NCBI GenBank assembly: GCA_002699105.1
Contig: PABJ01000026.1
Coordinates: 1-51,095, forward strand
Source of the DNA: Ectothiorhodospiraceae bacterium
GTDB taxonomy: Bacteria > Bacteroidota > Ignavibacteria > SZUA-365 > GCA-2699105
Reading direction: 5' to 3'
Length of the DNA: 51,095 nt
Shown here in pieces: positions 16,601 to 45,879 of this stretch. Position numbers and translations under genes: made by a program. Positions within the stretch are counted from its first letter, which is position 1; each line of letters starts with the position of its first letter. Below the pieces are notes generated by a model. That model did no database searches and was not told the DNA's origin. It saw nothing but the letters and a program-made list of their open reading frames with translations.

Positions 16601-16627
16601 GCTGTGTGTTATTGTATATGGAATGGT

Positions 16628-24600: not shown

Positions 24601-24633
24601 TAGACCGCCGCACGAACGACGTCTGAACGATTC

Positions 24634-24668: not shown

Positions 24669-24709
24669 TCAACGAGTCTGTTACATAACAATTCGCACCA
24701 AGGAGCGAC

Positions 24710-26416: not shown

Positions 26417-26438
26417 TCCAGGAAAGGGAAGTACGCAA

Positions 26439-27293: not shown

Positions 27294-27341
27294 AAGCAGA
27301 ATTTCAAACAGTAACATTTCATCGAAGATAGAGGAGTCACT

Positions 27342-27785: not shown

Positions 27786-27831
27786 GCGGCAACGATACAA
27801 CGATATTTATCCCAACTCATAAGGAAGAACT

Positions 27832-28698: not shown

Positions 28699-28816
28699 CG
28701 CTTTCTGCGATAGCCGTCCCGCATCGGCGGGGCGGCGCATCGCACGCTTTCGGCCAAGTTCCCTGCGCGTGTCCCGAGCCTATCATGCGCGTTTCAAGAG
28801 TCATCGAAATACCTAC

Positions 28817-30337: not shown

Positions 30338-30386
30338 CATGAGCTTCAAACATTTACACATTTCATCACTTTTATCGGAGTTACAC

Positions 30387-30947
30387 ATGAAGAAGCAATT
30401 CGCACTGTTAGCGTTTGCATTCGTTATCGCATTCACCGGCTGCCAGCAGCAGGATCAGGAAGCGATGAAGATGAAAGAGCAGGAGGAAGCGAATAAAGCC
30501 GCTGCCACCCGCTTGTTCGAAACCGCCTGGAACACCGGCGATTTCACCGTGATCGACGAACTTATCCCCGCCGATGCGAACGACCATGCAAGCCTGCCGG
30601 GCAAGGAGCCTGAGAAGGGTCCGGAAAGCTTCAAGAAAATCATCGGTATGTTCCGCGGCGCCATGCCTGATACCAAGATGACGATCCTCGATGAATTCGC
30701 AGAAGGCGATAAGGTCGTTCACCGCTGGTTCATCGAAGGCACGCACACCGGCGATCCGCTCTTCGGCGTTCCGCCCTCCGGCAACCCCGTGCGCTTCGGC
30801 GGCATCACGATCGTCCGCATTGAAGACGGCATGGTCATGGACCGCTGGTCGCAGGTCGATCAGTTGGCGATTCTCCAGCAGCTCGGCCTCGTTCCGCCGA
30901 TGGGTCCGCCGCCGGCAGAAGACGGTGCAGAGGACGCAGAAGGTTAA
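30387..30947 (+). CDS. Lipoprotein form of a SnoaL-type ester cyclase
   Basis: I chose ATG 30387, which gives MKKQFALLAFAFVIAFTGC with a lipobox. The domain reads ..ATRLFETAWNTGDF...GAMPDTKMTILDEFAEGDKVVHRWFIEGTHTGDPLFGVPPSGNPV...LAILQQLG. Confidence 0.75.
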   Translation: MKKQFALLAFAFVIAFTGCQQQDQEAMKMKEQEEANKAAATRLFETAWNTGDFTVIDELIPADANDHASLPGKEPEKGPESFKKIIGMFRGAMPDTKMTILDEFAEGDKVVHRWFIEGTHTGDPLFGVPPSGNPVRFGGITIVRIEDGMVMDRWSQVDQLAILQQLGLVPPMGPPPAEDGAEDAEG

Positions 30948-30990
30948 TCAGCGGTATTCGAATCACATTTAGCACAAGGAAGGTAGAGGC

Positions 30991-31821
30991 ATGAGCCACG
31001 CTCCCGACACCACCCTCGGAAACATGTACAAGGAACACATCGGCTTCATCAAGGCGAAGAACGTCGAGGGCATACTCAACCAGTACGCCGAAGACGCGCT
31101 CCTTATCGGAACGCTGACGCCCGACAGGAAGCCGGTGTACATCCGCGGACGCGATCAGCTCCGGGAATTCTTCACGAACAACTTCATGAACCTCAAGGAT
31201 CTCAACGTCGATCTCACCCAATGGGCCGAAGATAAAGACCGCTTGATGATCGTCGAGGAAGTGGAGGTTATCGGCGCGGACGATTCCAAAGCGAACATGC
31301 GCTTTTACGATAACTGGTTCCTGAAGGACGGACAGATCAAGATTCACTTTGCGGGCGTTGTGCGCTACCCCGACGGCACCTATGCCGACGGCACGGGCTT
31401 CCCGGAAGGCGAAGCGCCGCCGAAATCCGAGCCGCCCGACTCTCCGCTCGGCAATCTCTACAAGGAACACATCGGCTTCATCCATGAAAAGAACGTCGAA
31501 GGCATCCTCAACCAGTACGACGAAAACGCCCTGCTTATCGGTACGCTGACAGAGGGCAGGAAGCCGCGCTTCGTGCGCGGACGCGACGAACTGCGCGAGT
31601 TCTTCAACGGCAACTTCATGGGGCTGAAAGACCTCGATACGAAAATCGATCAGTGGGCGGAGACCGAAAACACGCTCATGATGGTCGAGAGCATCGACCT
31701 TGAGACGATCGACGGGCAGAAGATCAACACGAGCTTCTACGATAACTGGGTGCTCGAAAACGGCAAGATCATCATGCATTACGCCGGAGTGGTGCGCTAC
31801 CCCGACGGCAGCTACGCATAA
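30991..31821 (+). CDS. Tandem (2x) NTF2/SnoaL-like protein
   Basis: 276 aa. Both halves begin LGN(M/L)YKEHIGFI..KNVEGILNQY.E.ALLIGTLT and end AGVVRYPDG(T/S)YA. Confidence 0.65.
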   Translation: MSHAPDTTLGNMYKEHIGFIKAKNVEGILNQYAEDALLIGTLTPDRKPVYIRGRDQLREFFTNNFMNLKDLNVDLTQWAEDKDRLMIVEEVEVIGADDSKANMRFYDNWFLKDGQIKIHFAGVVRYPDGTYADGTGFPEGEAPPKSEPPDSPLGNLYKEHIGFIHEKNVEGILNQYDENALLIGTLTEGRKPRFVRGRDELREFFNGNFMGLKDLDTKIDQWAETENTLMMVESIDLETIDGQKINTSFYDNWVLENGKIIMHYAGVVRYPDGSYA

Positions 31822-31922
31822 TTCGGCAAGCGGTTACGGCGCGCACTGCGCGCCGCCGCTTCCAGCCGGATCGATGACCGACACAGACGACGAACGAATT
31901 CTTTCAAACAGGAGCGAATACA

Positions 31923-33446
31923 GTGCATCATCATTTTGATTATATCATCGTCGGCGGCGGATCGGCAGGGTGTATCCTCGCAGCACGGTTAAGCGAGGAC
32001 CCGAACGTGAACGTCCTTCTGCTCGAAGCCGGCGGAACGGAGATCCCTGAAACAGTAGAAAATCCCGCTACATGGTATATGACCTGGGGCGGCGATATCG
32101 ATTGGAACTACCAGACAGTACCGCAGCCCGGCCTCGACGGGCGGCAGACATTCGAACCGCGCGGCAAGATTATCGGCGGAAGTTCCTGCCTCAACCTGAT
32201 GATGTACATCCGGGGCAGCCAGGAAGACTACGATAACTGGGCATACAACGGCGCACCCGGCTGGGGCTACGACGACATGCTCCCGTTCTTCCAGCGCGTG
32301 GAAAACCAGGACGACGATTCCAGTCCGTGGGCGGGGCACCAGGGTCCTTTCGCCGTGAACACCGCGGCAGCGAACCCGAACCCGACCTCCGCGGCATTTA
32401 TCGACGCCTGCCTCGAACTCGGCTACCCATGGACGGACGATGTCAACGGCCCGCAGATGGAAGGCGTGAGTTGGCACCACATCAACGTGAAGAACGGCAA
32501 GCGCGACAGCCTCGCGACATCGTACCTCTTCCCGGTACTCAAGCGCCCCAATCTCACGCTCGAATCGCAGGCGCATGCGATGAACCTCATCTTCGACGGC
32601 AAACGCTGCGTCGGAGTGAAGTACAGCCAGAACTTCGAGGAGAAGGAAGTGCGCTGCAACCGCGAGGTTATCGTCGCCGCAGGCGCGATGGGTTCGCCGC
32701 AATTGCTCATGCTCTCCGGCGTCGGCAATCCTGAGCACCTGAAGGAGCACGGCATCCATGTGCACCACGAACTGCCGGGCGTCGGCGAGAACTTCCACAA
32801 CCACGTCCTGACGGGCGTGACGTACGAATGCGGTCCGCAGGTTCCGCCCCCGACGCAGAATATGAGCGAGGCCGTGATGTACACGACGTCGTTCCCCGGT
32901 TGGGTCGGCCCCGATCTTCAGATTGCGTTCGTGCATGCATCGTTCGATATCATCATCGGGCAGGCGCACCCGAACTCCATCAGCATTGTGCCCGGTCTCA
33001 CGCGGCCGATGTCGCGCGGCTGGGTCCGCCTGAACAGCAGCGATCCGTTCGATAAGCCGCTGATCAATCCGAACTACCTCGCAGTGAAGGCCGATCTCGA
33101 CCGGCTTATCCGCGCAATCGAGATTGCGCGCGAGATATTCGGCTCCGAGGCAATGAGCGACTGGGTGACCCAGGAACTCCTCCCCGGACCGGACAAGAAA
33201 ACTTACGAGCAGCTCGCTGCCTACGTGAAGTCCAAAGCGGATAGCTACCACCACCAGTGCGGTTCCTGCAAGATGGGACTCGACGATATGGCAGTGGTCG
33301 ATCCCGAGCTTCGCGTACATGGCGTGGACGGGCTCCGCGTTATCGACGCCAGCATTATGCCGACCGTGACGTCGGGCAATATCCATGCTGCCGTCCTCGC
33401 AATCGCAGAAAAAGGCGCGCATCTCATCAAAACCGCCAACAGTTAA
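31923..33446 (+). CDS. GMC-family FAD oxidoreductase (choline-dehydrogenase-like)
   Basis: The GTG start lies behind AGGAG. Motifs are [42 protein letters not shown] and the C-terminal [10 protein letters not shown]...RVIDASIMP. Confidence 0.9.
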
Positions 33447-33469
33447 CAGTAGTACGAAAGGGGGCCTTT

Positions 33470-33865
33470 ATGGCTGCCGCAATTGACATTGTAAAAGAGG
33501 CATACCAGGCATTCATGCGAAACGATATGGAAGGATTACTCGGGCAGATGTCCGGCGATATCGTCTGGCATGGGCACTTCCTCGGCGGTATTCCGATGAA
33601 CGGCACCTACCGCGGCAAGGACGGCGTCAAGCTCTGGCTCGGCAACCTGCGGGAGAGCATCGAGATGCTTGAATTCACGCCGGATACCTATCTGGGCGAT
33701 GAAGAAACCGTAGCCGTCACCGGAAGCGGACGCGCACGGGTCCGGCAGACGGCCGCGGAATACGAAAACGCCTGGGTCCACGTCTACAAGGTCAAAGACG
33801 GCAAGATTGTCTCCGGCGAACTATTTAACGATGTGCAGTCGATGAAGACCGCATTCAAACTTTAG
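33470..33865 (+). CDS. NTF2/SnoaL-like (ketosteroid-isomerase-like) protein
   Basis: I chose ATG 33470 behind AAGGGGG. The product is 131 aa and reads ..VKEAYQAFMRNDMEGLLGQMSGDIVWH...NAWVHVYKVKDGKIV.. It is a paralog of the next gene. Confidence 0.65.
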   Translation: MAAAIDIVKEAYQAFMRNDMEGLLGQMSGDIVWHGHFLGGIPMNGTYRGKDGVKLWLGNLRESIEMLEFTPDTYLGDEETVAVTGSGRARVRQTAAEYENAWVHVYKVKDGKIVSGELFNDVQSMKTAFKL

Positions 33866-33925
33866 GCATGCAGCCGCGGCAGGAGCTGCGGCTGTCACCT
33901 TTGCACCAAAGGAAAGGATGAGTCG

Positions 33926-34324
33926 ATGGCAACACCGCTCGAAACCGTTCAAAAAATGTATCAGGCATTCGGCACCGGCGATATGGAAACGTTCTTCGGC
34001 TATTTGCACGAGGACGTCGTCTGGGAATCGCGGTACCCTGAAGGCGTGCCGCTCGGCGGTTCGTTCCAGGGCCATACCGGCGTCGGCGAATTCCTCGGCA
34101 AGCTCGGAACCGTGCTCGAGATGCACGACTTCGCGCCCGTGAAGATGATCGGCGATGACGATACCGTCTTCAGCGCAGGCTACGAGGTTGTGACGCCGAA
34201 ATCGACAGGCAAGCAGTACCGCAACGAATGGGTGCACATGTTTTCGTTCAAGGACGGCAAGGTGACGCGCGTGCAGACGAGCAACGATGCCGCCGCTGCC
34301 GAGCAAGCGTTCAAGAGCGAATAA
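33926..34324 (+). CDS. NTF2/SnoaL-like (ketosteroid-isomerase-like) protein
   Basis: 132 aa, reading ..VQKMYQAFGTGDMETFFGYLHEDVVWE...NEWVHMFSFKDGKVTRV.. Confidence 0.65.
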   Translation: MATPLETVQKMYQAFGTGDMETFFGYLHEDVVWESRYPEGVPLGGSFQGHTGVGEFLGKLGTVLEMHDFAPVKMIGDDDTVFSAGYEVVTPKSTGKQYRNEWVHMFSFKDGKVTRVQTSNDAAAAEQAFKSE

Positions 34325-34382
34325 CCGGATAGCGAAACACGCAGATATACAAATCATCCGATAGAGAAGGACTTACATAGAT

Positions 34383-34955
34383 ATGGGCTTAGAAGGCAAA
34401 AAGGTCGCGATCCTGATGGAAGGCGACTACTACGAACCGGAAATATTCTATTACCAGCGCCGCTTTCTGGAGGAAGGCATCGACGCGCATTTCATGACGC
34501 GGCTCTGGGGCCAGCCGTCCCTCGAATTTCAGGGGCACGAATACAAGATTCCCTTCCACGTCGACAAGACGTTCGAAGGTATGTCCGACGATGACCTGCG
34601 CAGCTACAGCGCCGTGATCGTCCCGTCGGGCATGGTCTCCGACAGGCTGCGCTACACCGAAGACGTGAACCAGCTCCCGCCGGCGACAGAATTCCTCAAG
34701 CGCGCGTTCGCAGAGAAGAGTGTGCTGAAGGGCATTATCTGCCACGGGATGTGGCTCGTCGCTCCGGCGCCCGAGCTCGTGCGCGGCAGACCCGTCGTAG
34801 TGCATAACAACCTCCACGGCGACGCTGTGAACATGGGCGCGATCTACACGGATCAGGACGTCGTTGTGGACGACGATCTTGTCACCGGCCGCAGCGGCGG
34901 ACATTGCCATCTCTTCGCCCGCAAGATTATTGACATGATGTACGAGAGGGGGTAG
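34383..34955 (+). CDS. DJ-1/PfpI-family protein
   Basis: 190 aa. ..KKVAILMEGDY...YSAVIVPSG...LKGIICHGMWLVA.. contains the PfpI-type ICHG nucleophile elbow. Confidence 0.75.
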   Translation: MGLEGKKVAILMEGDYYEPEIFYYQRRFLEEGIDAHFMTRLWGQPSLEFQGHEYKIPFHVDKTFEGMSDDDLRSYSAVIVPSGMVSDRLRYTEDVNQLPPATEFLKRAFAEKSVLKGIICHGMWLVAPAPELVRGRPVVVHNNLHGDAVNMGAIYTDQDVVVDDDLVTGRSGGHCHLFARKIIDMMYERG

Positions 34956-34957
34956 CA

Positions 34958-35386
34958 ATGGGTAATCTGGTATTTCATCACATGGCAATCGCATGCAAGG
35001 ATCAGGATACGATCGAACGCTGGTACTGCAAGTACTTCGGCTTCGAGCGCGCACGCCTGATCGATCTCGGCGAGGAGAAGATCGTCTTCATCAAGAACGG
35101 CGATGCATATTTGGAACTCTTCGCCGCAAAGGAAGACCGGCCGTACCCCAGCCCCGTCGCCGACGGCGTGTGGTTCCCCGACTGGCGCCACATCGCATTC
35201 AAGGTCGATGACATCGATGCGAAGATCGCGGAGATGGGCGACGATGCGAACATCACGCAGGGTCCGATGGACTTCAGCGGCTTTATCCCCGGCTGGAAGA
35301 CCGTCTGGGTCGCCGATCCCGAAGGCAATATCGTGGAGATCAGCCAGGGCTACGTGGATCAGGATAATCCTCCTCCGCTCGACTAG
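34958..35386 (+). CDS. VOC / glyoxalase-bleomycin-resistance-fold protein
   Basis: 142 aa. ..FHHMAIACKD...YLELF...WRHIAFKVDDID...VADPEGNIVEI.. The start is 2 nt after the previous stop. Confidence 0.8.
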   Translation: MGNLVFHHMAIACKDQDTIERWYCKYFGFERARLIDLGEEKIVFIKNGDAYLELFAAKEDRPYPSPVADGVWFPDWRHIAFKVDDIDAKIAEMGDDANITQGPMDFSGFIPGWKTVWVADPEGNIVEISQGYVDQDNPPPLD

Positions 35387-35481
35387 CCTTCAGCCGGAGG
35401 GCTGCGCACAGCAGCCGGAAACATGGAGCATACAAGACATCATAACAATTAACATACAATCTCGACCCAGGAGGTATTTCT

Positions 35482-37308
35482 GTGAATCAATTTAACTTCA
35501 CGTTCTCCGATACCATCGGAGGATACGCAACATCGAATGTTGCCGACGACGGCACGTTTACCATGAAGACGTCCGACGGACGTGAATACAAAGTCAGGTT
35601 GAAAGGGAATTCGTACGCCCAAATGATTCGCAACCTGGGCGAACCGTACCACGACTGTACGGGCCAAATGCGCAGCATGATCGAACCGGACCGCCACTTG
35701 TACGTCTACGGGATTTTCTACCCGGAGGCCGGCGACGCCACGTTCGAAGCACAGTTTCTCCTCTTCGACGGACGCCGCACAGGCGAATTCGTCTTCGAAC
35801 GCCAGGACTGGTGGATTAACCAGATTCGGCAGCTCGGCGATTTCTACCTGAACGCGCAGTTCGGCGATCAGCCGGTGGACTACCGCAACTACCGCACGAC
35901 GATCTCGCTCACCGGCGAGCGCCCGCGCGATCACTTCCGTCAGGAAACAGATACGATCTCGCGCCTCGTGTACGGTTTCGCATCGGCATTCCTTCTCACC
36001 GGCGACGACCGCTACCTGGAGGGCGCCGAAAAGGGTACCGAGTACCTGCGCGATCACATGCGCTTCTACGATCTCGACGAAAACATTATCTACTGGTACC
36101 ACGGTATCGACGTACACGGTCAGCGCGAGGACAAGGTGTTCGCATCGGAGTTCGGCGACGACTTTAACGCTATTCCAGCATACGAGCAGATCTACGCCCT
36201 CGCCGGTCCTATCCAGACCTACCGCATCACCGGCGATCCCCGCATCCTGCAGGACGCAGAAATGACGGTGGATCTGTTCGATAAGTACTATCTCGATAAG
36301 GAAAAAGGCGGGTACTTCTCGCACCTCGATCCCATCACGCTCGATCCGCGCAGCGATGCGCTCGGCGAAAACAAGGGCAAGAAGAACTGGAACTCCGTCG
36401 GCGATCACGCTCCGGCATATCTGATCAACCTTTATCTCGCTACCGAGGACGAACGCTACGCGAAGTTCCTTGAGTACACGTTCGATACCATCGCGAAGTA
36501 CTTCCCCGACTACGACGAGAGTCCGTTTGTGCAGGAGAAGTTCTTCGAGGATTGGAGCCACGACCGCACCCACATGTGGCAGCAGAACCGCGGCGTTGTC
36601 GGGCATAACCTGAAGATCGCCTGGAACCTCATGCGCATGTACGGTCTTGAAACCAAGCCTGAGTACGAAGAGCTCGCCCGGAAGATCGCAGAGGTTATGC
36701 CGATGATCGGCGGCGACCGCCAGCGCCACGGCTGGTACGACGTCATGGAACGCGCCAAGCAGGACGGCGAAGACTGGTACCGGTATGCCTTCCATGATCG
36801 TAAGGCATGGTGGCAGCAGGAGCAGGGTATCCTCGCATACCTGATTCTCTGCGGCGTCCTCGGCGACGACGAATACCGCCGTATCGCGCGCGAGTCCTCA
36901 TCGTTCTACAACGCCTTCTTCCTCGATCACGACGACGGCGCGGTGTTCTTCAACGTGCTGGCAAACGGTATCCCGTATCTCATGGGCACCGAGCGCTTCA
37001 AGGGCAGCCACTCGATGAGCGGGTACCATTCGTTCGAACTCTGCTACCTCGCGCAGATATACACGAACCTCCTCATCACGAAACGTCCGCTGGATCTGTG
37101 GTTCAAGCCGCATCCGGGCGGGTTCTCGAACGGCAAGCTGTACGTCAGTCCGGACATCCTGCCGAAGGGCGCGATCAAGATTACCGAAGTCTGGATGGAC
37201 GAAGATCCGTACACGGCGTTCGACGCCGATGGGCTCACCGTCGATATCCCGGACGACGGCAAGCATCACAAATTCCAGGTCCGTGTGGCACCAGTCGACG
37301 CGAAATAA
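35482..37308 (+). CDS. N-acylglucosamine 2-epimerase (AGE) superfamily, (alpha/alpha)6-barrel protein with N- and C-terminal extensions
   Basis: 608 aa with a GTG start behind AGGAGG. ..ISRLVYGFASAFLLTGDDRYLEGAEKGTEYL...YEQIYALAGPIQTYRITGD...GDHAPAYLINLY...VVGHNLKIAWNLMRMY is the AGE/cellobiose-epimerase-like repeat pattern. Confidence 0.65.
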   Translation: MNQFNFTFSDTIGGYATSNVADDGTFTMKTSDGREYKVRLKGNSYAQMIRNLGEPYHDCTGQMRSMIEPDRHLYVYGIFYPEAGDATFEAQFLLFDGRRTGEFVFERQDWWINQIRQLGDFYLNAQFGDQPVDYRNYRTTISLTGERPRDHFRQETDTISRLVYGFASAFLLTGDDRYLEGAEKGTEYLRDHMRFYDLDENIIYWYHGIDVHGQREDKVFASEFGDDFNAIPAYEQIYALAGPIQTYRITGDPRILQDAEMTVDLFDKYYLDKEKGGYFSHLDPITLDPRSDALGENKGKKNWNSVGDHAPAYLINLYLATEDERYAKFLEYTFDTIAKYFPDYDESPFVQEKFFEDWSHDRTHMWQQNRGVVGHNLKIAWNLMRMYGLETKPEYEELARKIAEVMPMIGGDRQRHGWYDVMERAKQDGEDWYRYAFHDRKAWWQQEQGILAYLILCGVLGDDEYRRIARESSSFYNAFFLDHDDGAVFFNVLANGIPYLMGTERFKGSHSMSGYHSFELCYLAQIYTNLLITKRPLDLWFKPHPGGFSNGKLYVSPDILPKGAIKITEVWMDEDPYTAFDADGLTVDIPDDGKHHKFQVRVAPVDAK

Positions 37309-37323
37309 AACCAAGAAGGAATC

Positions 37324-37659
37324 ATGGAAGTTAACGTAACTACACAGGGTGATGTCACGATCGTCGATCTCTCCGGAGACATCGACGGCCGGACATCGCC
37401 CCAGGCGCAGTCGGTCATCTCGGCAAATCTGAGCGACGGCGTCAAACTGCTATTGAACATGACCCAGGTACCATATATGTCCAGCGCAGGCCTGCGGATG
37501 CTGCTGCTCGTCTACCGGCAGATCATCGCGAAGCAGGGCAAGGTTGTCCTTGTCGGGCTATCGGAAGATCTGCAGGACACGATGGCCGCCACCGGCTTTC
37601 TGGATCATTTCGATACGTTTGGCACTGTCGAAGACGGCATCACTCACTTAAACGCCTAG
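37324..37659 (+). CDS. STAS-domain anti-sigma-factor antagonist (SpoIIAA/RsbV-like)
   Basis: 111 aa. ..DVTIVDLSGDIDG...LLLNMTQVPYMSSAGLRMLL contains the conserved phospho-Ser context. Confidence 0.85.
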   Translation: MEVNVTTQGDVTIVDLSGDIDGRTSPQAQSVISANLSDGVKLLLNMTQVPYMSSAGLRMLLLVYRQIIAKQGKVVLVGLSEDLQDTMAATGFLDHFDTFGTVEDGITHLNA

Positions 37660-37670
37660 AGGACTGACTG

Positions 37671-39851
37671 ATGGAAATAGAACGCATAGATATCTACCCG
37701 ACGCACGAGCACCGGGGCTACAAACTGCGCCCCGGAAAGCCGTACCCGTTCGGCGCGACGATCGTCAACGGCGGCGTGAACTTCTCCGTGTTTTCCAAGC
37801 ACGCGAGCTACTGTACGCTGGTGCTGTTCGATAAAGGCGCCTCGGAGCCGAAGGTCGAAATCCCGTTCCGCGGCATGTTCGAACGGCCCGAAACCAAAGA
37901 ACCGTTCTGGGGCGACTTCCGGATCGGCGCGGTGTATTCCATGGTCGTCTTCGATCTCGATCCCGAAGAAATCGAGTACGGCTTCCGCATGGATGCACCC
38001 TACGACAGCGCCAAAAAAGGCGAGCCGGGATTCCACCGTTTCGATCACGGCAACATCCTCCTCGATCCCTATGCCAAGTCGATAGGCGGGCGCGAGGTCT
38101 GGGGCGAGCAGCCCGATTGGAACGATATCTATCAGCACCGCGCTCGGATCGTGCAGGACGACTTCGACTGGGAGGACGACCGCCCGCTCGAAATCCCGAT
38201 GGAAGACCTCGTGATCTACGAAGCCCATGTGCGCAGCTTTACGCGCCACGAAAGTTCAGGCGTTCGCTTCCCGGGCACCTTTGCCGGACTCAGGGAGAAG
38301 ATCCCGTACCTCAAAGAACTGGGTATCAACTGCCTGGAGCTTATGCCGATTTACGAGTTCGATGAATTCGAGAACAGCCGCGAAAGCCCCATCACCGGCG
38401 AAACGCTGATGAACTACTGGGGCTACAGTACGGTCGGATTCTTCGCGCCGAAGGCAGGCTTTGCCGCGATGGGCAAGAGCAAGGACGGCACCATGGTCGC
38501 CGACGAGCTCAAGAACCTCATCAAGGAGCTGCACCTCAACGGCATCGAGGTCATCCTCGACGTGGTGTTCAACCACACGGCGGAGGGGAACGAGTTCGGT
38601 CCGACGATCTCCTTCCGGGGCATCGATAACGTGACCTACTACATGCTCACGCCGGAGGGCTACTACTATAACTTCAGCGGAACGGGCAACACGCTGAACT
38701 GCAACAACCCCGTTGTGCGCGGCATCGTGCTGGACTGCCTGCGCTACTGGGCGTCGGAATTCCACATCGACGGCTTCCGCTTCGATCTTGCCGCCATCCT
38801 GGGCCGCGATCAGAACGGCGCGCCGCTCCCGAATCCGCCCCTGCTCGAAATCCTCGCCCACGATCCGATCCTTGCGAAGTGCAAGCTTATCGCCGAGGCA
38901 TGGGATGCAGGCGGGCTGTACCAGGTGGGTTCGTTCCCGGCATACGGACGCTGGGCGGAATGGAACGGCAAGTACCGCGATGCGATCCGCCAGTACCTGA
39001 AAGGCGACATGGGCCTTATCGGCGAGATGTCGCAGCGGCTGCAGGGCTCGCCCGATCTGTATTCCTCGCGCGGCACGACGGCATCGATCAACTTCATCAC
39101 GTGCCACGATGGGTTCACGCTCTACGATACCGTCTCCTATAACGATAAGCACAACGACGCCAACGGCGAGGGCGGCGCGGACGGCGCCAACGACAACAAC
39201 AGCTGGAACTGCGGCTGGGAAGGCGAGACCGACGACCCTGCGATAAACGCGCTGCGTAAAAAGCAGATTAAGAATGCGTTTGCCATGCTGCTCACCAGCC
39301 AGGGCGTCCCCATGATGCTCATGGGCGATGAGGTCGCACGGACGAAATACGGCAACAACAACACCTACTGCCAGGATAACGATCTGAACTGGCTGGATTG
39401 GGAGAAATTCAAAAAGCACGAAGACCTCTACCGCTTCGTCCGTAACTGTATCGCCTTCCGGCACGAGCACTACGTGCTGCGAAATCGTTGGCATCTGCGG
39501 AACGAAGACTACGTCGGCAGCGGTTATCCTGATATAAGCTGGCACGGTACTACTCCATGGCAACCTGACTGGGACGGCACCAGCAGGCTTCTTGCCTTCA
39601 TGCTCTGCGGCAAGCACGCCCGCGGCGGTACCGAAGTGGATAACTACATCTACGTGGCAACCAACATGCACTGGGAAGGCCATGAATTCGGGCTCCCCAT
39701 GCTCCCCGACGGGATGCAGTGGCATGTCTTTGCGAACACCGGCATGCCGTCGCCCGACGATATCGCATCGCCTGGGCATGAGCCCCGCCTCGAAGACCAG
39801 TCGCGGTTCTTCGTCGGCGATCGCTCGGTTGTTATTCTTGTCGGTAAATAG
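37671..39851 (+). CDS. glgX: Glycogen debranching enzyme GlgX (GH13 isoamylase type)
   Basis: 726 aa. GH13 regions present are NYWGYSTVGFFAP, DVVFNHTAEG, GFRFDLAAILGRD, IAEAWDAGG and FITCHDGFTLYD. Confidence 0.9.
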   Translation: MEIERIDIYPTHEHRGYKLRPGKPYPFGATIVNGGVNFSVFSKHASYCTLVLFDKGASEPKVEIPFRGMFERPETKEPFWGDFRIGAVYSMVVFDLDPEEIEYGFRMDAPYDSAKKGEPGFHRFDHGNILLDPYAKSIGGREVWGEQPDWNDIYQHRARIVQDDFDWEDDRPLEIPMEDLVIYEAHVRSFTRHESSGVRFPGTFAGLREKIPYLKELGINCLELMPIYEFDEFENSRESPITGETLMNYWGYSTVGFFAPKAGFAAMGKSKDGTMVADELKNLIKELHLNGIEVILDVVFNHTAEGNEFGPTISFRGIDNVTYYMLTPEGYYYNFSGTGNTLNCNNPVVRGIVLDCLRYWASEFHIDGFRFDLAAILGRDQNGAPLPNPPLLEILAHDPILAKCKLIAEAWDAGGLYQVGSFPAYGRWAEWNGKYRDAIRQYLKGDMGLIGEMSQRLQGSPDLYSSRGTTASINFITCHDGFTLYDTVSYNDKHNDANGEGGADGANDNNSWNCGWEGETDDPAINALRKKQIKNAFAMLLTSQGVPMMLMGDEVARTKYGNNNTYCQDNDLNWLDWEKFKKHEDLYRFVRNCIAFRHEHYVLRNRWHLRNEDYVGSGYPDISWHGTTPWQPDWDGTSRLLAFMLCGKHARGGTEVDNYIYVATNMHWEGHEFGLPMLPDGMQWHVFANTGMPSPDDIASPGHEPRLEDQSRFFVGDRSVVILVGK

Positions 39852-39892
39852 GAACTACTATACAACAAGTTTGAGTCAGAAGGAGAACGTAC

Positions 39893-40210
39893 ATGGCGTT
39901 TGAAGCACATTTGGAAATGGACGGGCAGGTTGCAAAGATCTTCCTCAAGGGGCAGCTCGATGCGAACGCTGCGCCCGAATTCAGAGACGAAGTGGAAAAA
40001 GCCGCAGGCAACAACCCGACCCGCCTCGCATTGATGCTCCACGATTTGGAGTATATCGCCAGCGCGGGGATTCGCGTCCTGATCTTCGCAAAGCAGAAGA
40101 TGGGCGGCGGCGTGGATGTTGTCGCCGTATCGCCGCAGGAGCAGATCGTCGAAACACTGGAAATGACCGGCCTGACCCACAGCATCGAGATTATCGAGAC
40201 GCTCGACTAA
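39893..40210 (+). CDS. STAS-domain anti-sigma-factor antagonist, second copy
   Basis: 105 aa. ..VAKIFLKGQLDA...LMLHDLEYIASAGIRVLI contains the conserved Ser. Confidence 0.8.
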   Translation: MAFEAHLEMDGQVAKIFLKGQLDANAAPEFRDEVEKAAGNNPTRLALMLHDLEYIASAGIRVLIFAKQKMGGGVDVVAVSPQEQIVETLEMTGLTHSIEIIETLD

Positions 40211-40288
40211 CGCAACGCTGATTGCAGGCTAGCCCTACGCATCACGCACGAACGAGAAGTATTACAGACTAACTTTCGGAAGAGCATC

Positions 40289-40699
40289 GTGAAGACACTA
40301 ACCGTACCGGGAACACTGGAAGCACTCGACGAGATCGGTGAATTTGTCATGGATTTCGGGCAGGGCGCTGGATTGGAAAAAAAGAAAATCTACAGGCTCC
40401 GCCTTGCCGTCGATGAGATATCCACAAACGTCATCCTCCACGGCTATAAAGAGGCCGGGATCGACGGGAAACTGACGTTCGAGGCCGAGGAAACCGGCGA
40501 GGACATCACCATACGCCTCTTCGATACCGGCGTGGAGTACGATCCCAACGAAAAAGCCAACCCGGAAAGTCTGAACAAACCCCTCGAAGAGCGTCCCATC
40601 GGCGGACTCGGCGTCTTCCTCTCGATCCAGAGCGTGGACAAATTCCTCTACGAGCGCAAGGACGGCAAGAACATCCATACCTTCGTCGTCAGGAAATAG
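40289..40699 (+). CDS. RsbW/SpoIIAB-like anti-sigma serine kinase (HATPase_c)
   Basis: 136 aa with a GTG start. The N-box is EISTNVILHG, the G1 box is LFDTGVEYD and the G2 box is GGLGVFL. Confidence 0.8.
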   Translation: MKTLTVPGTLEALDEIGEFVMDFGQGAGLEKKKIYRLRLAVDEISTNVILHGYKEAGIDGKLTFEAEETGEDITIRLFDTGVEYDPNEKANPESLNKPLEERPIGGLGVFLSIQSVDKFLYERKDGKNIHTFVVRK

Positions 40700-40724
40700 C
40701 AGCCCGTGCATCGCAGATCTTTCG

Positions 40725-40751
40725 CAGCCCGCTTCGGCGGGCTGTTTGCGT
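40725..40751 (+). terminator. Intrinsic terminator of the kinase operon
   Basis: CAGCCCGC ttcg GCGGGCTG is an 8-bp stem followed by TTTGCGTT. Confidence 0.7.
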
Positions 40752-40771
40752 TGGAGGGGGATTATCTTCGC

Positions 40772-40825
40772 TATTTTAGAAAAAGCCCTTAACCTAAAAT
40801 AACGCTGTTTGTTATTTTAGGATGA
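40772..40825 (+). repeat. Fic-leader core, orphan upstream copy (U1)
   Basis: The sequence is TATTTTAGaaaaagcccttaacCTAAAATAACgctgtttGTTATTTTAGGATGA. It contains three TATTTTAG-type arms: direct, inverted, direct. Confidence 0.8.
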
Positions 40826-40836
40826 AACTACCCGCT

Positions 40837-40854
40837 GGCCCGCTTCGGCGGGCC
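40837..40854 (+). terminator. Second copy of the GC hairpin (part of the ~112-bp duplication)
   Basis: GGCCCGC ttcg GCGGGCC has no U-tract after it. Confidence 0.35.
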
Positions 40855-40890
40855 GATTGGGGAGGCGATTGTAATTCTCCGGATTATCAT

Positions 40891-40944
40891 TATTTTAGGA
40901 AAGGCCGTTAAGCTAAAATAACGGTGACTGCTATTTTAGGATGA
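40891..40944 (+). repeat. Fic-leader core, gene-proximal copy (U2)
   Basis: TATTTTAGgaaaggccgttaagCTAAAATAACggtgactGCTATTTTAGGATGA lies directly before the Fic start region. Confidence 0.8.
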
Positions 40945-40951
40945 TTTGATA

Positions 40952-42121
40952 ATGAAACGGAAACTGCAAGGCAGGTACGTAGAGATTTCTACCGTGGGCG
41001 AGCGGGCGAAGGCATTCGTGCCGGACCCGCTTCCGCCAACACCGCCGATTACGTGGACGCCCGCGCTGCGCCAGGGCTTCGATGCCGCGATGCATGCCCT
41101 CGGGCGCCTCGATGCAGCTTCCGATCTCCTGCCGGATACGCCTCTTTTCCTCTATACCTATATCCGGAAGGAAGCCGTGCTCTCCTCGATGATCGAAGGA
41201 ACGCAGTCCTCGCTTTCGGATCTCCTTGTCTATGAACTCGATGAAGCGCCCGGCGTCCCGCTGGACGATGTGCAGGAAGTGAGTAACTATGTCGCTGCGC
41301 TGGAACACGGAATGCAGCTCCTCAGGTCGGGGTTGCCCATTTCGCTGCGTCTTATCCGCGAGGTGCACGGGGTGCTGCTCCAGAAGGGAAGAGGGGCCGG
41401 GATAACGCCGGGGAGATTCCGGCGCTCGCAGAACTGGATCGGCGGGACAAGGCCCTGCAACGCCAGCTTTATCCCTCCGCCGCCGCAGGATGTGCGCGCA
41501 TGCATGTCCGAACTCGAATCGTTCATGCACGGCAGTCCGCAATCGGGGCAGGCGCTGCTTACGGCCGGGTTGGCGCACGTGCAGTTCGAAACCATCCACC
41601 CGTTCCTCGACGGGAACGGACGGGTGGGGCGGCTACTCGTTACGCTCCTTCTTTGCGAACGAGGCGTTCTGCGCGAGCCTCTGCTGTATCTCAGTTTGTA
41701 TTTCAAAAATCACCGCGCCTATTGCTACGAACTGCTCAACGCCGTTCGCATGCGAGGCGAGTGGGAGGACTGGCTTGCGTTCTTCGCCGAGGCCGTGAAA
41801 ACGGCCGCCGTCCAGGCAGTGGATACCGCACAGCAGCTTCATACGCTGGCGGAGGCCGACCGCAAGAGCATAGCCGCACTCGGCAAGGCTGCGGATTCGG
41901 CGTTGGCGGTGCACGAGGCGATGAAGCAGCAGCCTATCGCGAATGCGAACCGGCTTGTTCAGCGGACCGGGTTGACGCATGCAACCGTGAATCTTGCCCT
42001 CTCGCATCTGGAGCGGCTTGGAGTCGTGCGCGAGATAACCGGCAAGCAGCGCGGACGTATCTATGCCTACACCGCATACATGGATGCCCTGAACCACGGA
42101 ATTGAACAGCCCCCCGGCTAG
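40952..42121 (+). CDS. Fic-family protein (AMPylase-type), class II with intramolecular inhibitory motif
   Basis: The Fic motif HPFLDGNGRVGR is at nt 41597-41632. An N-terminal inhibitory-type motif S-x-x-x-E-G is present in VLSSMIEGTQ. The C-terminal ~80 aa look winged-helix-like. I prefer ATG 40952; the track starts at TTG 40946. Confidence 0.85.
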   Translation: MKRKLQGRYVEISTVGERAKAFVPDPLPPTPPITWTPALRQGFDAAMHALGRLDAASDLLPDTPLFLYTYIRKEAVLSSMIEGTQSSLSDLLVYELDEAPGVPLDDVQEVSNYVAALEHGMQLLRSGLPISLRLIREVHGVLLQKGRGAGITPGRFRRSQNWIGGTRPCNASFIPPPPQDVRACMSELESFMHGSPQSGQALLTAGLAHVQFETIHPFLDGNGRVGRLLVTLLLCERGVLREPLLYLSLYFKNHRAYCYELLNAVRMRGEWEDWLAFFAEAVKTAAVQAVDTAQQLHTLAEADRKSIAALGKAADSALAVHEAMKQQPIANANRLVQRTGLTHATVNLALSHLERLGVVREITGKQRGRIYAYTAYMDALNHGIEQPPG

Positions 42122-42131
42122 CACCTTCCCA

Positions 42132-42149
42132 AGCCCGCCCCTGCGGGCT
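42132..42149. terminator. Bidirectional hairpin between convergent genes
   Basis: AGCCCGC ccct GCGGGCT sits between the Fic stop (42121) and the formyltransferase stop (42167). It is followed by GGGGGAGGGGGGATT. Confidence 0.55.
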
Positions 42150-42166
42150 GGCAGGGGGAGGGGGGA

Positions 42167-43189
42167 TTAACAAATTAAAGATAAGATGTCACGGGAGAGC
42201 GGCAGGTCAGGGTATTTCTCTTGGTGGGCCTCGGCAATCTCTAGCATTTGCTCCCTGAAATCTGCGCTCTCAAATACCAAGCCTGTTTCAAGATTGAGAT
42301 CATCACTCTCGGTTGAATAGTCGTCGACAAGCAACAACCCACCGCCTGTTTGTACTATCATATCGCCATTTGGATAAATCTTGAGCACAGTGCCAGGCGG
42401 TTGATTACTCCGTAATTCCAGAGCGAATGGTCGCGCCGCCCAAATACGGCACTTTATTCCAGAGACGGAAGTGAATGCTCCAGGGTAGGGGCGTGTCTGT
42501 GCACGAATGAAATTGAATATTTCTCTCGATGAGCGGCGCCAATCAATAGCACCATGCTTTGGTGATCGTTTTGGTAAATACTCAGGAGTGTCATCCTGCG
42601 GAACAACTTCTCCTCTCTGGATCTTCCCGCTCGATAGGCAGTCAACAAGCATTTCACCGGTCAGCCATGCTACTTTATAGTAGCTCGTGTTGATATCATC
42701 ATGATCATCGTAACTGAACGTACGGGTATCTATCACAGAGCCTGAATCTATCCCGGGATCAATTTTGAAGATAGACAGTTGGAATTGTTCATGCCCGAGT
42801 ATCAACGCCCAGTTTTGGGGGGAGCGTCCTCTGCCTTTCGTGATACCGCGGGAACTGCCATGAACACCGATTGCGCCATATGTACTGTGTTCGATTAACC
42901 AATCAGGAATAAGGCGCTGCCACCCTACGACAAGCAGAAGATCGATACGTTCTCGCGACAGCAGTTCTTTCGTAGCTTCGTCGCGCATAGAATAATTATC
43001 CACAGGGATATGTGTGATACCATGTTGCCGGCAGTACGGCGCATAGTTCATATATCCGGAAACAGCATCGGAGTCGTGGCGATCCGTAAGCCCAATAAAC
43101 CCGCTGATTTCAAGGTTCTGCCGTACGATATCAATCGTATCGTAATATGTATTCAACGTCGAGACAATGTAGATGCGCATGTTACTCAC
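42167..43189 (-). CDS. Formyltransferase-family protein (Fmt/ArnA-N-like, probably sugar N-formyltransferase)
   Basis: 340 aa. ..IDLLLVVGWQRLIP...GAIGVHGS....GRGRSPQNWALI.. resembles the formyl-transferase core. GC is low, about 40% on a sample line. Confidence 0.7.
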   Translation of the reverse strand: MSNMRIYIVSTLNTYYDTIDIVRQNLEISGFIGLTDRHDSDAVSGYMNYAPYCRQHGITHIPVDNYSMRDEATKELLSRERIDLLLVVGWQRLIPDWLIEHSTYGAIGVHGSSRGITKGRGRSPQNWALILGHEQFQLSIFKIDPGIDSGSVIDTRTFSYDDHDDINTSYYKVAWLTGEMLVDCLSSGKIQRGEVVPQDDTPEYLPKRSPKHGAIDWRRSSREIFNFIRAQTRPYPGAFTSVSGIKCRIWAARPFALELRSNQPPGTVLKIYPNGDMIVQTGGGLLLVDDYSTESDDLNLETGLVFESADFREQMLEIAEAHQEKYPDLPLSRDILSLIC

Positions 43190-43922
43190 TTCGCATCATA
43201 TAGTCGTACAGCCCTGTATTCTTCGAAGCTGCATATCCACTGTTCACCTTCGTATGCTCTTCATCAATATGAGCAATATGACGCTTGATGTATTCAGCAT
43301 GTATATCCGGATACCCTATCCCATCTTCTGTAAAATGCAAAGGATGAAGTAATACCTGTAAAGGTTTCTCTACAGCTCGCTTTACGAACTCATATGGATT
43401 CTTTCCACGAAAGTTCATCCTTGAGTCGGACATGTATACAAAGTCGTTAAAGATACGCTCATCATACGCATTGAAGAATCCATCGAAGAAAGGGTATTCA
43501 CCATGCAAGGATGGAATGTGAATACTTATCGACTCTACTTTTTGTCCGGTAATATCCTCCAGAATACGACACTCAAGTCTCATCTTTTCGTCAAGGAGTA
43601 CATTATCCTCGGTCCGATAGATTGACGGATCGTAATGGAGACCGATTTCCCAGCCGCCATCAGCCAGGTTCTTCAATATCCCGGCATTGTAGTTCGACCT
43701 GGGATTATATGAATGACACGAGGTAAGGATGAAAAACGTTGATCGGACGCCGGCATTCTCTTCTTGTTCTGCCATCTTCACAAGAGGCTCAATATCGAGA
43801 TCTACATCATGCCGCATTACTATTTCACCGGGCGAGTAGGTAGTCGAACGCATTGGGATAATACTCCCAAATTGCTTCGCGTGTAGAAGAAAATCGAGAT
43901 ACTGAGAGTACGTGTAAATCAT
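43182..43922 (-). CDS. Polysaccharide-deacetylase-like protein
   Basis: 246 aa. ..VMRHDVDLD...AGVRSTFFILT...GWEIGLHYD.. resembles deacetylase-fold proteins from capsule and O-antigen loci. The call is tentative. Confidence 0.5.
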   Translation of the reverse strand: MIYTYSQYLDFLLHAKQFGSIIPMRSTTYSPGEIVMRHDVDLDIEPLVKMAEQEENAGVRSTFFILTSCHSYNPRSNYNAGILKNLADGGWEIGLHYDPSIYRTEDNVLLDEKMRLECRILEDITGQKVESISIHIPSLHGEYPFFDGFFNAYDERIFNDFVYMSDSRMNFRGKNPYEFVKRAVEKPLQVLLHPLHFTEDGIGYPDIHAEYIKRHIAHIDEEHTKVNSGYAASKNTGLYDYMMRSE

Positions 43923-43947
43923 CTAGTTGATATCCTTAAAGAATGAG

Positions 43948-44916
43948 CTAAAATGAAGTTTGGTTGATGGCTCGAAGCAAAGATCGAGGCAGCCGTCTAA
44001 TAATATCGCTGAACAAATCGTCAAATAAAACCTTGGCATGACGATATATCTCGAAATGAACCGTGGCGGACGCCCCTGTTGGATAACGTGAGATTAATCC
44101 CATCCATTTCCCGATGGCAAAGCGCTTTATCTGTTCAGTCTGCTCCGGTGTAAATGTATATGCACCGAAGAGGTACCGGAGAATACGCATGTATTCCAGT
44201 ACCGCCGTGCCGTTCCGGACGCTAGCGCTGCGCACGGTTCCGCCGTGCGTACGAAACCTGTTGAGCGGTTCGGCAATGTAGGCGATCTTCCGGCTGCGGA
44301 TCATCTGCGCGTAGAGCAGCCAATCGGCGCTGAGGCGGTTACGCAGATCGTACCCGCCGCATTCCAGGAACGCATCGCGCCGAAGCAGCGCAGCGCTGGA
44401 GTTGGGGATGATGTTCTTGAAGGCGAGGTAGGGCGCCATCTCCCGACCCGTTGCGATGAAATCGCTATCCCATTTATCGGTGCCCAGGTCGCGCAGCCAA
44501 TCCGCCCACGTGCCGATGACCTTCCCTTGGCTATCGATACTGTGCGATTGCGCGTACGCAATGGCAATCTCCTCATCCTGCTTCATCACATCGTAGAGCC
44601 GTTCGAGTAGCTGCGGCTCTGCGGAGTCGTCGGCTTCGGCGAACAAAATGAAATCGGCGGTTTCGTTGCGTACAACCTCGTTCCGCATCGCATAGGGCGA
44701 TCCGCTATTGATCATCCGGTACTGCGTTCGAACCAGATCATGCGTTTCGTACTGCCGAATGATCGATCTACTCCGATCCTGAGAACCGTCATCAATAATG
44801 AGAAACGAATCGGGCAGGCGGCTCTGATGCAGTATACTCTCGATCCGGTCTGCGAGGTAGGCTTCGTAGTTGTAGTTCGGCAGGAACACCGCAATAGAAT
44901 GATGCGGACCTTCCAT
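43948..44916 (-). CDS. Family 2 glycosyltransferase
   Basis: 322 aa. ..IAVFLPNYNYEAYLADRIESILHQS...LIIDDGSQDRS...FAEADD.. Confidence 0.85.
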   Translation of the reverse strand: MEGPHHSIAVFLPNYNYEAYLADRIESILHQSRLPDSFLIIDDGSQDRSRSIIRQYETHDLVRTQYRMINSGSPYAMRNEVVRNETADFILFAEADDSAEPQLLERLYDVMKQDEEIAIAYAQSHSIDSQGKVIGTWADWLRDLGTDKWDSDFIATGREMAPYLAFKNIIPNSSAALLRRDAFLECGGYDLRNRLSADWLLYAQMIRSRKIAYIAEPLNRFRTHGGTVRSASVRNGTAVLEYMRILRYLFGAYTFTPEQTEQIKRFAIGKWMGLISRYPTGASATVHFEIYRHAKVLFDDLFSDIIRRLPRSLLRAINQTSF

Positions 44917-44917
44917 C

Positions 44918-45859
44918 TTAAGCGCGGTTTGTTTCTCTGAGCATAAATGCGAGACCTAGAAGAGACAGGATGTACATCGCACCAAGCCTGAGAGAAGGAC
45001 GGTACTTTAGTGCGGTACCGATGAACTGACGCCGCTTTGGGTACTTGATACGATAGAGCTTTTGGGCTATCCGATTCATCTTGTCCTTATACAGTTCAGC
45101 AATCGCTGGTTGGAGGCGGCCCGTCTGCAGCATCTTCTCGTACACATGAAAATCAGAGACTTCTGCTTTCGCAGAACGTGCATGAAGTTCGGTCCTTGTT
45201 AATGATGAGCTGACGATGCGTATGCTCGTAGTCATGACAGGTAAATACTTGAATTTATACTGAAGCGCGAGTCTAAGCCACATATCCCAATCTTCATAAA
45301 CGAGCCGTTCATCATACAGCCCTACATTGTCTAGACATTCTCTCCTAATAATAGTCGCTATTGCTGATAACCAGTTCCGTTTCGATAGCTCGTCAAAGAT
45401 ATCACCCTCAGGGAGGTCGTTTATGCTTCTATATTGCTCAATGTAAGTCGGAGTGATGGTGTTGCTAGACTCGTCAATTAATTCACTGTTACTGTAAACT
45501 ACAGCGTAGTCCGATGCAAGGTCCAAAATGCTGTCCACATGTACTTCAACATTGTTAGGTGCCCATCTGTCGTCCGCTGCAACCATGCAAATATACTCTC
45601 CACTAGAGATGGAGACTAGCTCATTCAAAGTTGCACAAATACCCTTATTCTTGTCGTGTTTAACAAACGTACAATCGAAGTTATTGTTTTCTATCCACTG
45701 CTCGATTAGCTCGACTGAATTGTCTCTTGAGCAATCGTCTGATATAATCACTTCGATTTTTGGGTATGTTTGCTTTTTAATGCTCTCAAGACATTCAATA
45801 ATAAATGGAGCTTGATTGAAGCACATACAAAATACGGAGACTAAAGGTCTATCTACCAT
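44918..45859 (-). CDS. Family 2 glycosyltransferase
   Basis: 313 aa. ..VSVFCMCFNQAPFIIECLESIKKQTY...VIISDDCSRDNS...MVAADD.. GC is low, about 40%. Confidence 0.85.
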   Translation of the reverse strand: MVDRPLVSVFCMCFNQAPFIIECLESIKKQTYPKIEVIISDDCSRDNSVELIEQWIENNNFDCTFVKHDKNKGICATLNELVSISSGEYICMVAADDRWAPNNVEVHVDSILDLASDYAVVYSNSELIDESSNTITPTYIEQYRSINDLPEGDIFDELSKRNWLSAIATIIRRECLDNVGLYDERLVYEDWDMWLRLALQYKFKYLPVMTTSIRIVSSSLTRTELHARSAKAEVSDFHVYEKMLQTGRLQPAIAELYKDKMNRIAQKLYRIKYPKRRQFIGTALKYRPSLRLGAMYILSLLGLAFMLRETNRA

Positions 45860-45879
45860 GCCGCTAAAAGTTAGACTTG

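Follow-up and report, generated by a model that had tools for sequence, protein, structure and literature searches.

Contig PABJ01000026.1 (51,095 nucleotides, nt; GenBank assembly GCA_002699105.1, filed under an Ectothiorhodospiraceae bacterium), which we refer to over its whole length as the window, carries at positions 35482–40699 the genes for an AGE-fold enzyme, a first STAS-domain protein (STAS1), the glycogen debranching enzyme GlgX, a second STAS-domain protein (STAS2) and an RsbW-type serine kinase. Judged by gene order and orthology, this is the cassette known from the Synechocystis icfG cluster, in a new variant whose gene content lacks a cis-encoded sensor phosphatase. We lean, with moderate confidence, towards reading the icfG-type core as a Ser-phosphorylation partner switch arranged round two carbohydrate enzymes, in which a PP2C phosphatase would act in trans, the STAS proteins would gate the enzymes and a sigma factor might be a further output.

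Work on the icfG cluster has been confined to Synechocystis, in which it counts as a carbon-regulation locus of cyanobacteria; the earlier studies are reportedly those of Beuf 1994, Shi, Bischoff & Kennelly 1999 and Gonzalez 2001. Its core is kept in a Bacteroidota/Ignavibacteria-like bacterium that does not photosynthesise and in roughly a dozen phyla, across which the two enzymes remain 62–84 % identical; this indicates a control point of glycogen (alpha-glucan) turnover that is general and so far lacks an explanation. A literature search returned nothing relevant on cross-phylum conservation of the icfG cluster or on a link between GlgX and partner switching.

An icfG-type cassette in the window

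The open reading frame (ORF) list gives five intact genes, all on the + strand and separated, in order, by 15, 11, 41 and 78 nt. The first (35482–37308) encodes the AGE-fold enzyme of 608 amino acids (aa), an ortholog of Slr1855 that matches GlcNAc_2-epim (PF07221) with 48.6 bits against a cut-off of 23.4. It is followed by the gene of STAS1 (37324–37659, 111 aa; STAS PF01740, E 5e-22; TIGR00377, 88.6 bits), an Slr1856-type phosphoprotein, and by that of GlgX (37671–39851, 726 aa; TIGR02100, 651.8 bits against a cut-off of 640.9), the ortholog of Slr1857. STAS2 (39893–40210, 105 aa; PF01740, E 4e-15; TIGR00377, 77.9 bits) is an Slr1859-type phosphoprotein, while the 136 aa serine kinase (40289–40699; HATPase_c_2 PF13581, E 3e-19) is the ortholog of Slr1861. 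ORFs, domain matches and local folding bear out the account given beforehand by a reading of the DNA letters without database searches (the sequence-only reading), namely this gene order, gaps of 11–78 nt and a terminator at the end, where a strong hairpin lies.

The icfG operon of Synechocystis sp. PCC 6803 (slr1852–slr1862) shares the five core genes and their order (Slr1855, Slr1856, Slr1857, Slr1859, Slr1861) with the window, and includes the isoamylase/GlgX Slr1857, the antagonist Slr1859, the PP2C IcfG/Slr1860 and the kinase Slr1861 (PMC8670252, PMC12329169). The PCC 6803 order was taken from the literature, and sequences were compared with a locus from a metagenome-assembled genome (MAG) of the genus Synechocystis (L067), which reads AGE, STAS, GlgX, STAS, GAFx2-PP2C (691 aa), kinase. 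Identity between the window and L067 amounts to 64 % for the AGE-fold protein, 54 % for STAS1, 70 % for GlgX, 47 % for STAS2 and 46 % for the kinase, and this comparison shows that each of the five genes has its ortholog in the cyanobacterial cluster, with which the window also shares the kinase motifs and the sequence context of the STAS phospho-Ser. The sequence-only reading had described the Synechocystis cluster as having this order with the PP2C IcfG between the second STAS gene and the kinase, and both the literature and the synteny and identity of L067 agree with it. The window differs from the icfG cluster in that its operon lacks an IcfG-type PP2C, in that its host is not a phototroph but a Bacteroidota/Ignavibacteria-like organism with type IX secretion system (T9SS) sorting domains, and in its upstream enzymes, a SnoaL/GMC oxidoreductase/DJ-1/glyoxalase set which is found in the window, L001, L002, L085 and L086.

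In species-representative genomes, one per species, we counted at least 548 cassette loci, and the best 80 among them cover at least 12 phyla. Annotation of the ORFs called at each locus relied on models made from the cassette proteins. The AGE-STAS1-GlgX-STAS2 order is nearly universal, and the order of the window is repeated in 50 or more loci. The cassette order was found in Chloroflexota, Cyanobacteriota, Deinococcota, Planctomycetota, Spirochaetota and Myxococcota, in MAGs labelled as Gammaproteobacteria, and in Bacteroidota, Ignavibacteriota, Omnitrophota and Verrucomicrobiota; at an Armatimonadota locus the contig ends after AGE-STAS. Relative to the window, identities range over 62–84 % for the AGE-fold protein, 64–82 % for GlgX, 34–57 % for STAS1, 31–61 % for STAS2 and 29–64 % for the kinase. 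Counts of STAS presence are lower bounds, since the ORF/overlap filter missed some of these genes, for example STAS1 of L001 and L005, which is present in the gene calls. The arrangement is thus widely conserved, as had been supposed from the single locus.

The sensor phosphatase has been lost from the operon

The phosphatase was classified in the 53 loci with at least 3 kb beyond GlgX. The kinase is followed by a PP2C in 34 of the 53, and another 11 have the Synechocystis order with the PP2C ahead of the kinase, a group that includes three kinase::PP2C fusions (L019, L073, L080). One locus has the PP2C only, four have the kinase only (the window, L001, L005 and L021) and three have neither; at two of the last three (L042 and L053) a STAS-kinase-PP2C set lies 5.4 kb off on the opposite strand. 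Altogether, a SpoIIE-type PP2C adjoins or is fused to the kinase in 46/53 loci (87 %). The sensor part of the PP2C varies between loci (REC, REC-GAF, cNMP-GAF, dCache-HAMP, HAMP or GAFx2), and hence the enzyme-STAS-kinase core is constant and the input phosphatase modular. In L015 a cNMP-GAF-PP2C (14803–16665) comes right after STAS2 and no kinase gene was found, the contig ending ~1.8 kb past the PP2C.

L001 and L005 are the closest relatives of the window (83–84 % AGE identity), and the three are syntenic on both flanks of the cassette; L021 is a Gemmataceae locus. When the whole 51-kb window was searched with 46 cassette PP2Cs by phmmer, hmmsearch and tblastn, neither a PP2C ORF nor a remnant of one came up, and no further STAS or kinase gene was found in the window beyond the cassette. 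When the DNA 3' of the kinase was searched for a PP2C pseudogene in the window, L001, L005 and L021, only the kinase domains of the fusion proteins gave matches, and in L005 a convergent gene begins 47 nt past the kinase. The next-closest relatives (76 % AGE identity) keep a kinase followed by a REC-GAF-PP2C or a GAF-PP2C, and with a PP2C in 46 of the 53 loci its absence is a lineage-specific loss from the operon. These comparisons of loci show the loss of PP2C from the operon to be real, clean and ancestral to the clade of the window, L001 and L005; the loss in L021 is independent of it. The sequence-only reading had described the module as one with no phosphatase, which stands with the operon and the 51-kb window, and not the genome, as its scope. 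It had also pointed to the 78-nt slot between STAS2 and the kinase as the vacant place of icfG. The slot indeed holds no PP2C in the window, but most relatives place theirs after the kinase (34 vs 11 loci).

The STAS proteins and the kinase keep their functional motifs

The predicted phospho-site of STAS1 is Ser54, within the motif YMSSAGLR. Residues S53, S54, A55, G56, L57 and R58 are invariant among 33 aligned orthologs, and the motif is retained in 56 orthologs. In STAS2 the predicted site is Ser57, within YIASAGIRVLIFAKQKMG; the group consensus xYMASAGLRVLIFAKQKMG is conserved in 47 orthologs, and nearly all STAS2 orthologs keep the phospho-Ser. STAS1 (YMSSAGLR) and STAS2 (YMASAGLRVLIFAKQKMG) are two separate orthologous groups with distinct motifs, and the phospho-Ser contexts picked out beforehand, YMSSAGL for STAS1 and YIASAGI for STAS2, are both present. 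The two serines align with what we take to be Ser58 of SpoIIAA. At L082 (14447–15139) we observed a tandem STAS2-STAS2 fusion of 230 aa.

Both STAS proteins exceed the cut-off of TIGR00377, the model of the anti-sigma-antagonist superfamily, and the best named NCBIfam matches of the kinase are RsbW and SpoIIAB, weak and both below cut-off. The ATP-site motifs of the kinase are intact and conserved when compared with 55 orthologs (N-box AVDEISTN; FDTGVEYD, containing D-T-G; IGGLGVFL, containing GGLGVF), and the N-box, D-x-G and GGLG motifs are retained at every locus including the window, whose kinase is 60–64 % identical to those of L001 and L005. We also compared all five genes among the window, L001 and L005. 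Synonymous divergence (dS) was saturated or undefined, nonsynonymous divergence (dN) was 0.13–0.37, and dN/dS was at most 0.2 where calculable, a bound within which the kinase falls in the one comparison that could be calculated. By this measure all five genes are under purifying selection, and because dN/dS stays at or below 0.2 among three diverged loci without PP2C, the cassette is not decaying.

The switch proteins recall the Bacillus RsbV-RsbW-RsbU/P and SpoIIAA-SpoIIAB-SpoIIE modules, with which they share a STAS antagonist bearing a phosphorylatable Ser in (D/S)S(S/A)GL and a small GHKL-type serine kinase of 136–160 aa. A SpoIIE-family PP2C is common to the Bacillus modules and the relatives of the cassette, whereas the window has none in cis. 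Scores of the window proteins fall far below the cut-offs of the Bacillus equivalog models (39 of 145 bits for RsbW, 25 of 135 for SpoIIAB and 43 of 115 for SpoIIAA), and, unlike the Bacillus modules, the window has no adjacent sigma gene and has two STAS paralogs interleaved with enzymes. Partner switches without a sigma factor are known from Pseudomonas (HsbR-HsbA), Vibrio (SypE-SypA) and Bordetella (BtrU/V/W), where the STAS protein, phosphorylated or not, binds a non-sigma target. These targets are signalling/secretion proteins, and none is known to be a carbohydrate-active enzyme.

Two conserved carbohydrate enzymes

The 726 aa protein has the domains CBM_48, Alpha-amylase and ISOA1-3_C, displays the GH13 catalytic motifs GFRFDLA, EAWD and FITCHDG in its translation, and is 64–82 % identical to the cassette GlgX of other phyla; on these features it is a GlgX-type glycogen debranching enzyme.

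The AGE-fold protein has over 4800 homologs, the top 120 of which are all 72–83 % identical to it. Its start is a GTG at 35482, which is supported by the conservation of the N-terminal residues F6, F8 and D10. An AlphaFold2 model (predicted local distance difference test, pLDDT, 80.6; predicted TM-score, pTM, 0.87) displays an N-terminal beta domain of ~100 aa, an (alpha/alpha)6 barrel and a C-terminal beta sandwich of ~70 aa. In a Foldseek search the top PDB match was the glucose 2-epimerase 8h1l (E 4e-12, TM 0.67–0.70), and the other solved matches were cellobiose 2-epimerases, mannose isomerase and YihS. The barrel is thus shared with the AGE superfamily (glucose 2-epimerase 8H1K/8H1L, cellobiose 2-epimerase 3WKF, mannose isomerase 5X32 and YihS; TM 0.67–0.74 normalised to the target), whereas identity to these structures is only 13–21 %, PDB profile E-values are 3e-5 to 0.03, and both the N-terminal beta domain and the C-terminal beta sandwich are additions of the window protein. 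Proteins of the window type are, moreover, far more conserved across phyla than typical members of the superfamily.

The invariant H309 and H375 align with His residues of the AGE family, and the C-terminal catalytic His lies outside the hidden Markov model alignment, with the invariant H510 and H516 as candidates. The GHxxE motif of the family reads GHNLK in the window protein and in all 23 aligned orthologs, the Glu being replaced by Lys378, and the chemistry may therefore differ from that of known 2-epimerases. On fold and conserved residues, the protein is probably an active enzyme of the sugar epimerase/isomerase type, and a reasonable guess from its gene context is that it acts on the reducing end of the malto-oligosaccharides released by GlgX. 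It is among the most conserved uncharacterised enzymes in these genomes, and its substrate would probably explain the whole cassette.

What the switch may control

In Synechocystis, Slr1861 phosphorylates Slr1856, Slr1859 and the unlinked Ssr1600, while IcfG dephosphorylates Slr1856 and not Slr1859 (PMC12329169, PMC11619594). The kinase PmgA also acts on or binds these Synechocystis STAS proteins (PMC12329169, PMC11619594). Given that Slr1861 reaches the unlinked Ssr1600 and PmgA the STAS proteins of the cluster, trans-acting regulators are documented for the icfG system.

Gene fusions point to a target for STAS2. At 12 loci (eleven from Nostocales, and L077) an AGE-like protein carries a C-terminal STAS domain, which scores 77–113 bits with the STAS2 model (104–113 in Nostocales, 76.9 in L077) against 24–30 bits with the STAS1 model. 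The gene order there is GlgX, AGE::STAS2, PP2C, and neither a free-standing STAS gene nor a kinase gene lies close by. Since the fusion of two genes is a classical sign that their products interact physically, it is very likely that STAS2 works on the AGE-like enzyme. The fusions lend independent support to direct control of this enzyme and, with the lack of a sigma-70 gene of groups 1–3 within 10 kb at 85 loci, favour an enzyme output.

In the switch that we favour, the kinase would phosphorylate Ser54 of STAS1 and Ser57 of STAS2, as Slr1861 does Slr1856 and Slr1859, and the phosphorylation state would select the binding partner of each STAS protein. At least STAS2 would act directly on the AGE-fold enzyme and STAS1 may act on GlgX; glycogen debranching and the further conversion of the released malto-oligosaccharides would be gated post-translationally, and the kinase may additionally hold a sigma factor encoded elsewhere. 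Input in nearly all relatives would come through a PP2C with a variable sensor domain, beside or fused to the kinase, while in the clade formed by the window, L001 and L005 the STAS proteins would most likely be dephosphorylated by a PP2C whose gene lies at another place in the genome. A stricter form of this model, which we offer tentatively and would not yet rely on, is that the cassette is in many phyla a self-contained enzyme switch, STAS2 gating the AGE-fold enzyme and STAS1 gating GlgX by phospho-state and not by transcription, with the core as the selected unit and the phosphatase exchangeable. If this were true, the window lineage would show that the sensor phosphatase is an exchangeable input that need not stay in the operon and could even be given up altogether. 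The natural variants (no PP2C, no kinase, kinase::PP2C, AGE::STAS2) are handles for testing which partners the STAS proteins bind.

Several observations weigh against direct control of the enzymes. Experiments on the orthologous kinase support, and only indirectly, a single output, the sigma factor SigC: Kurkela et al. 2025 see in Slr1861 the kinase that acts on the unlinked antagonist Ssr1600 and "most probably" an anti-SigC factor, sigC being encoded elsewhere, on the indirect evidence of RNA polymerase holoenzyme westerns and an AlphaFold model (PMC12329169). Thr often takes the place of the phospho-Ser in those STAS2 domains that are fused, and L077 and L078 have neither Ser nor Thr at the site, for which reason the fused form may work differently. 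No STAS1-enzyme fusion was found, and the fusion evidence is limited to STAS2 and AGE. In a search of 1.8 billion representative proteins with a profile of STAS1, the ten long hits that we examined among the best 150 included no fusion to GlgX or another carbohydrate enzyme; they were multi-STAS proteins, STAS-kinase fusions or PP2C-HTH-STAS proteins.

No sigma-70 gene of groups 1–3 was found within 10 kb of the cassette at 85 loci, nor any sigma-70-like ORF in the 51-kb window; the scan of all loci used an RpoD C-terminal seed and gave no match better than E 1.3, the self-match control having worked; with such a seed, extracytoplasmic function (ECF) sigmas might be missed. The sequence-only reading was hence right in finding no sigma factor, as holds for every cluster examined. 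Its step from there to an output other than a sigma factor does not follow, because Slr1861 is reported as anti-SigC with sigC unlinked, and a cluster without a sigma gene is then no evidence for a non-sigma output. What that reading had itself named as speaking against it, control by the STAS proteins of a sigma/anti-sigma pair encoded elsewhere, has in part been reported for Synechocystis.

The same report feeds a different explanation, in which the module would be a canonical anti-sigma switch: the kinase holds an unlinked sigma factor, the STAS proteins only release it, and GlgX and the AGE-fold enzyme are merely co-transcribed carbon-storage genes. The reported role of Slr1861, with sigC unlinked (PMC12329169), is joined here by the resemblance of the window kinase to RsbW and SpoIIAB and by the scores of both STAS proteins above the TIGR00377 cut-off. 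We nevertheless consider this explanation unlikely, although it deserves to be taken seriously, for the case for SigC is an indirect one, the 85 loci have no sigma-70 gene of groups 1–3 within 10 kb, and STAS1, GlgX and STAS2 are strictly interleaved across at least 12 phyla. The AGE::STAS2 fusions without a nearby kinase are, in addition, hard to square with a STAS2 that only titrates the kinase. Moreover, group-2 SigC-type sigma factors are not known from some of the phyla that carry the cassette.

Other explanations start from the missing phosphatase. The kinase alone might set the level of phosphorylated STAS according to ATP/ADP, with a reset through STAS synthesis or turnover. Such energy sensing has been proposed for RsbW and SpoIIAB, and a one-way switch would suit the clean absence of PP2C from three related loci and, independently, from L021, together with the purifying selection on the kinase and both STAS genes. 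It remains improbable in our view, as 87 % of the comparable loci keep the PP2C and three fuse it to the kinase, which indicates that the two normally work together; furthermore, Bacteroidota/Ignavibacteria-type genomes commonly have several SpoIIE-type PP2Cs, and cross-talk between modules is documented in Synechocystis. It is very hard to believe that the loss of PP2C inactivated the regulatory module and left a decaying remnant in which only the enzymes matter: the five ORFs are intact, conservation extends to the catalytic and phospho-site motifs, and dN/dS is well below 1 among the three diverged PP2C-less loci, even though the PP2C gene is missing from the operon and the gap between STAS2 and the kinase is 78 nt in the window against 15 nt in L001 and L005. 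A Fic-domain protein (40946–42121, + strand), encoded 246 nt 3' of the kinase in the same orientation and at the position where relatives have the PP2C, was considered as its replacement, that is, as the second modifier of the module, and rejected with next to no doubt. Its gene is absent from L001 and L005, which likewise lack PP2C, is separated from the kinase by two hairpins and opens a 5.5-kb stretch found only in the window, whose 42–46 kb part has a lower GC content, and the protein has a typical stand-alone Fic_N-Fic-wHTH architecture.

Transcript end and genomic surroundings

A GC-rich hairpin of 9 bp on the + strand (40727–40746) starts 28 nt past the stop codon of the kinase and is followed 3' by UUUGCGUU. 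The local fold has a free energy of -33.8 kcal/mol (z -3.64), and hairpin and UUUGCGUU together are the probable end of the transcription unit. A consensus terminator scan did not flag this hairpin, because the T-run is weak, and an Rfam search of 35000–41200 gave a sole match, a sub-threshold isrB located on the hairpin itself. Two tandem units (40720–40945), each of ~113 nt, lie in the interval from the kinase stop to the Fic start. The hairpin of the first unit is GCAGCCCGC-TTCG-GCGGGCTG and that of the second GGCCCGC-TTCG-GCGGGCC, and each is followed by ATTTTAG..AAA.GCC.TTAA.CTAAAATAACG...TATTTTAGGATGA with an internal inverted repeat. Both copies of the 13-mer TATTTTAGGATGA in the window belong to these two units (chance expectation 0.05), and the units gave no match to an Rfam family.

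Downstream, ~5.5 kb of the window (40700–46300) has no similarity to L001 or L005, in which the interval between the kinase and a Laminin_G_3 gene is much shorter. The Laminin_G_3 gene is the shared downstream neighbour, and the stretch sits between it and the kinase. It holds the genes of the Fic_N-Fic-wHTH protein (40946–42121, +), a formyltransferase (42167–43189, - strand), a 246 aa protein with no Pfam match and two GT2 glycosyltransferases, and its 42–46 kb part has a GC content of 0.47–0.48 vs about 0.58. It is probably an inserted polysaccharide-modification island.

Upstream and outside the switch, a co-directional block on the + strand (23761–35386) encodes, according to Pfam assignments, a ThiJ-like protein, a thiamine pyrophosphate (TPP) enzyme, an NmrA protein, several SnoaL/NTF2-fold proteins, an OprB porin, a GMC oxidoreductase, a DJ-1/PfpI protein and a glyoxalase. 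The same block precedes the cassette in L001, L002, L085 and L086, as well as in L005 by DNA similarity, and travels with the cassette in several phyla. In L086 the GMC oxidoreductase of the block (4780–6663) has an N-terminal FHA (phospho-Thr-binding) domain, a hint that Ser/Thr phospho-signalling reaches the upstream enzymes as well.

As to the host, two ORFs of the window have weak T9SS C-terminal sorting domains, and the best named relatives of an indolepyruvate:ferredoxin oxidoreductase subunit (75–78 % identical) come from Bacteroidota and Ignavibacteria MAGs; the initial description of a T9SS-bearing organism is thus reasonable. The contig of L005 (CAYPBB010000009.1) is labelled 'uncultured Ectothiorhodospiraceae bacterium', yet it is syntenic with the window on both cassette flanks, and the markers of the window point to Bacteroidota/Ignavibacteria. 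Mis-binning of this contig or a transfer of the entire region may account for this. Further away, the window encodes a McrBC-type restriction pair (6623–9777), made up of McrB (674 aa, AAA_5 GTPase-like) and McrC (375 aa), in DNA of lower GC content (0.46–0.48).

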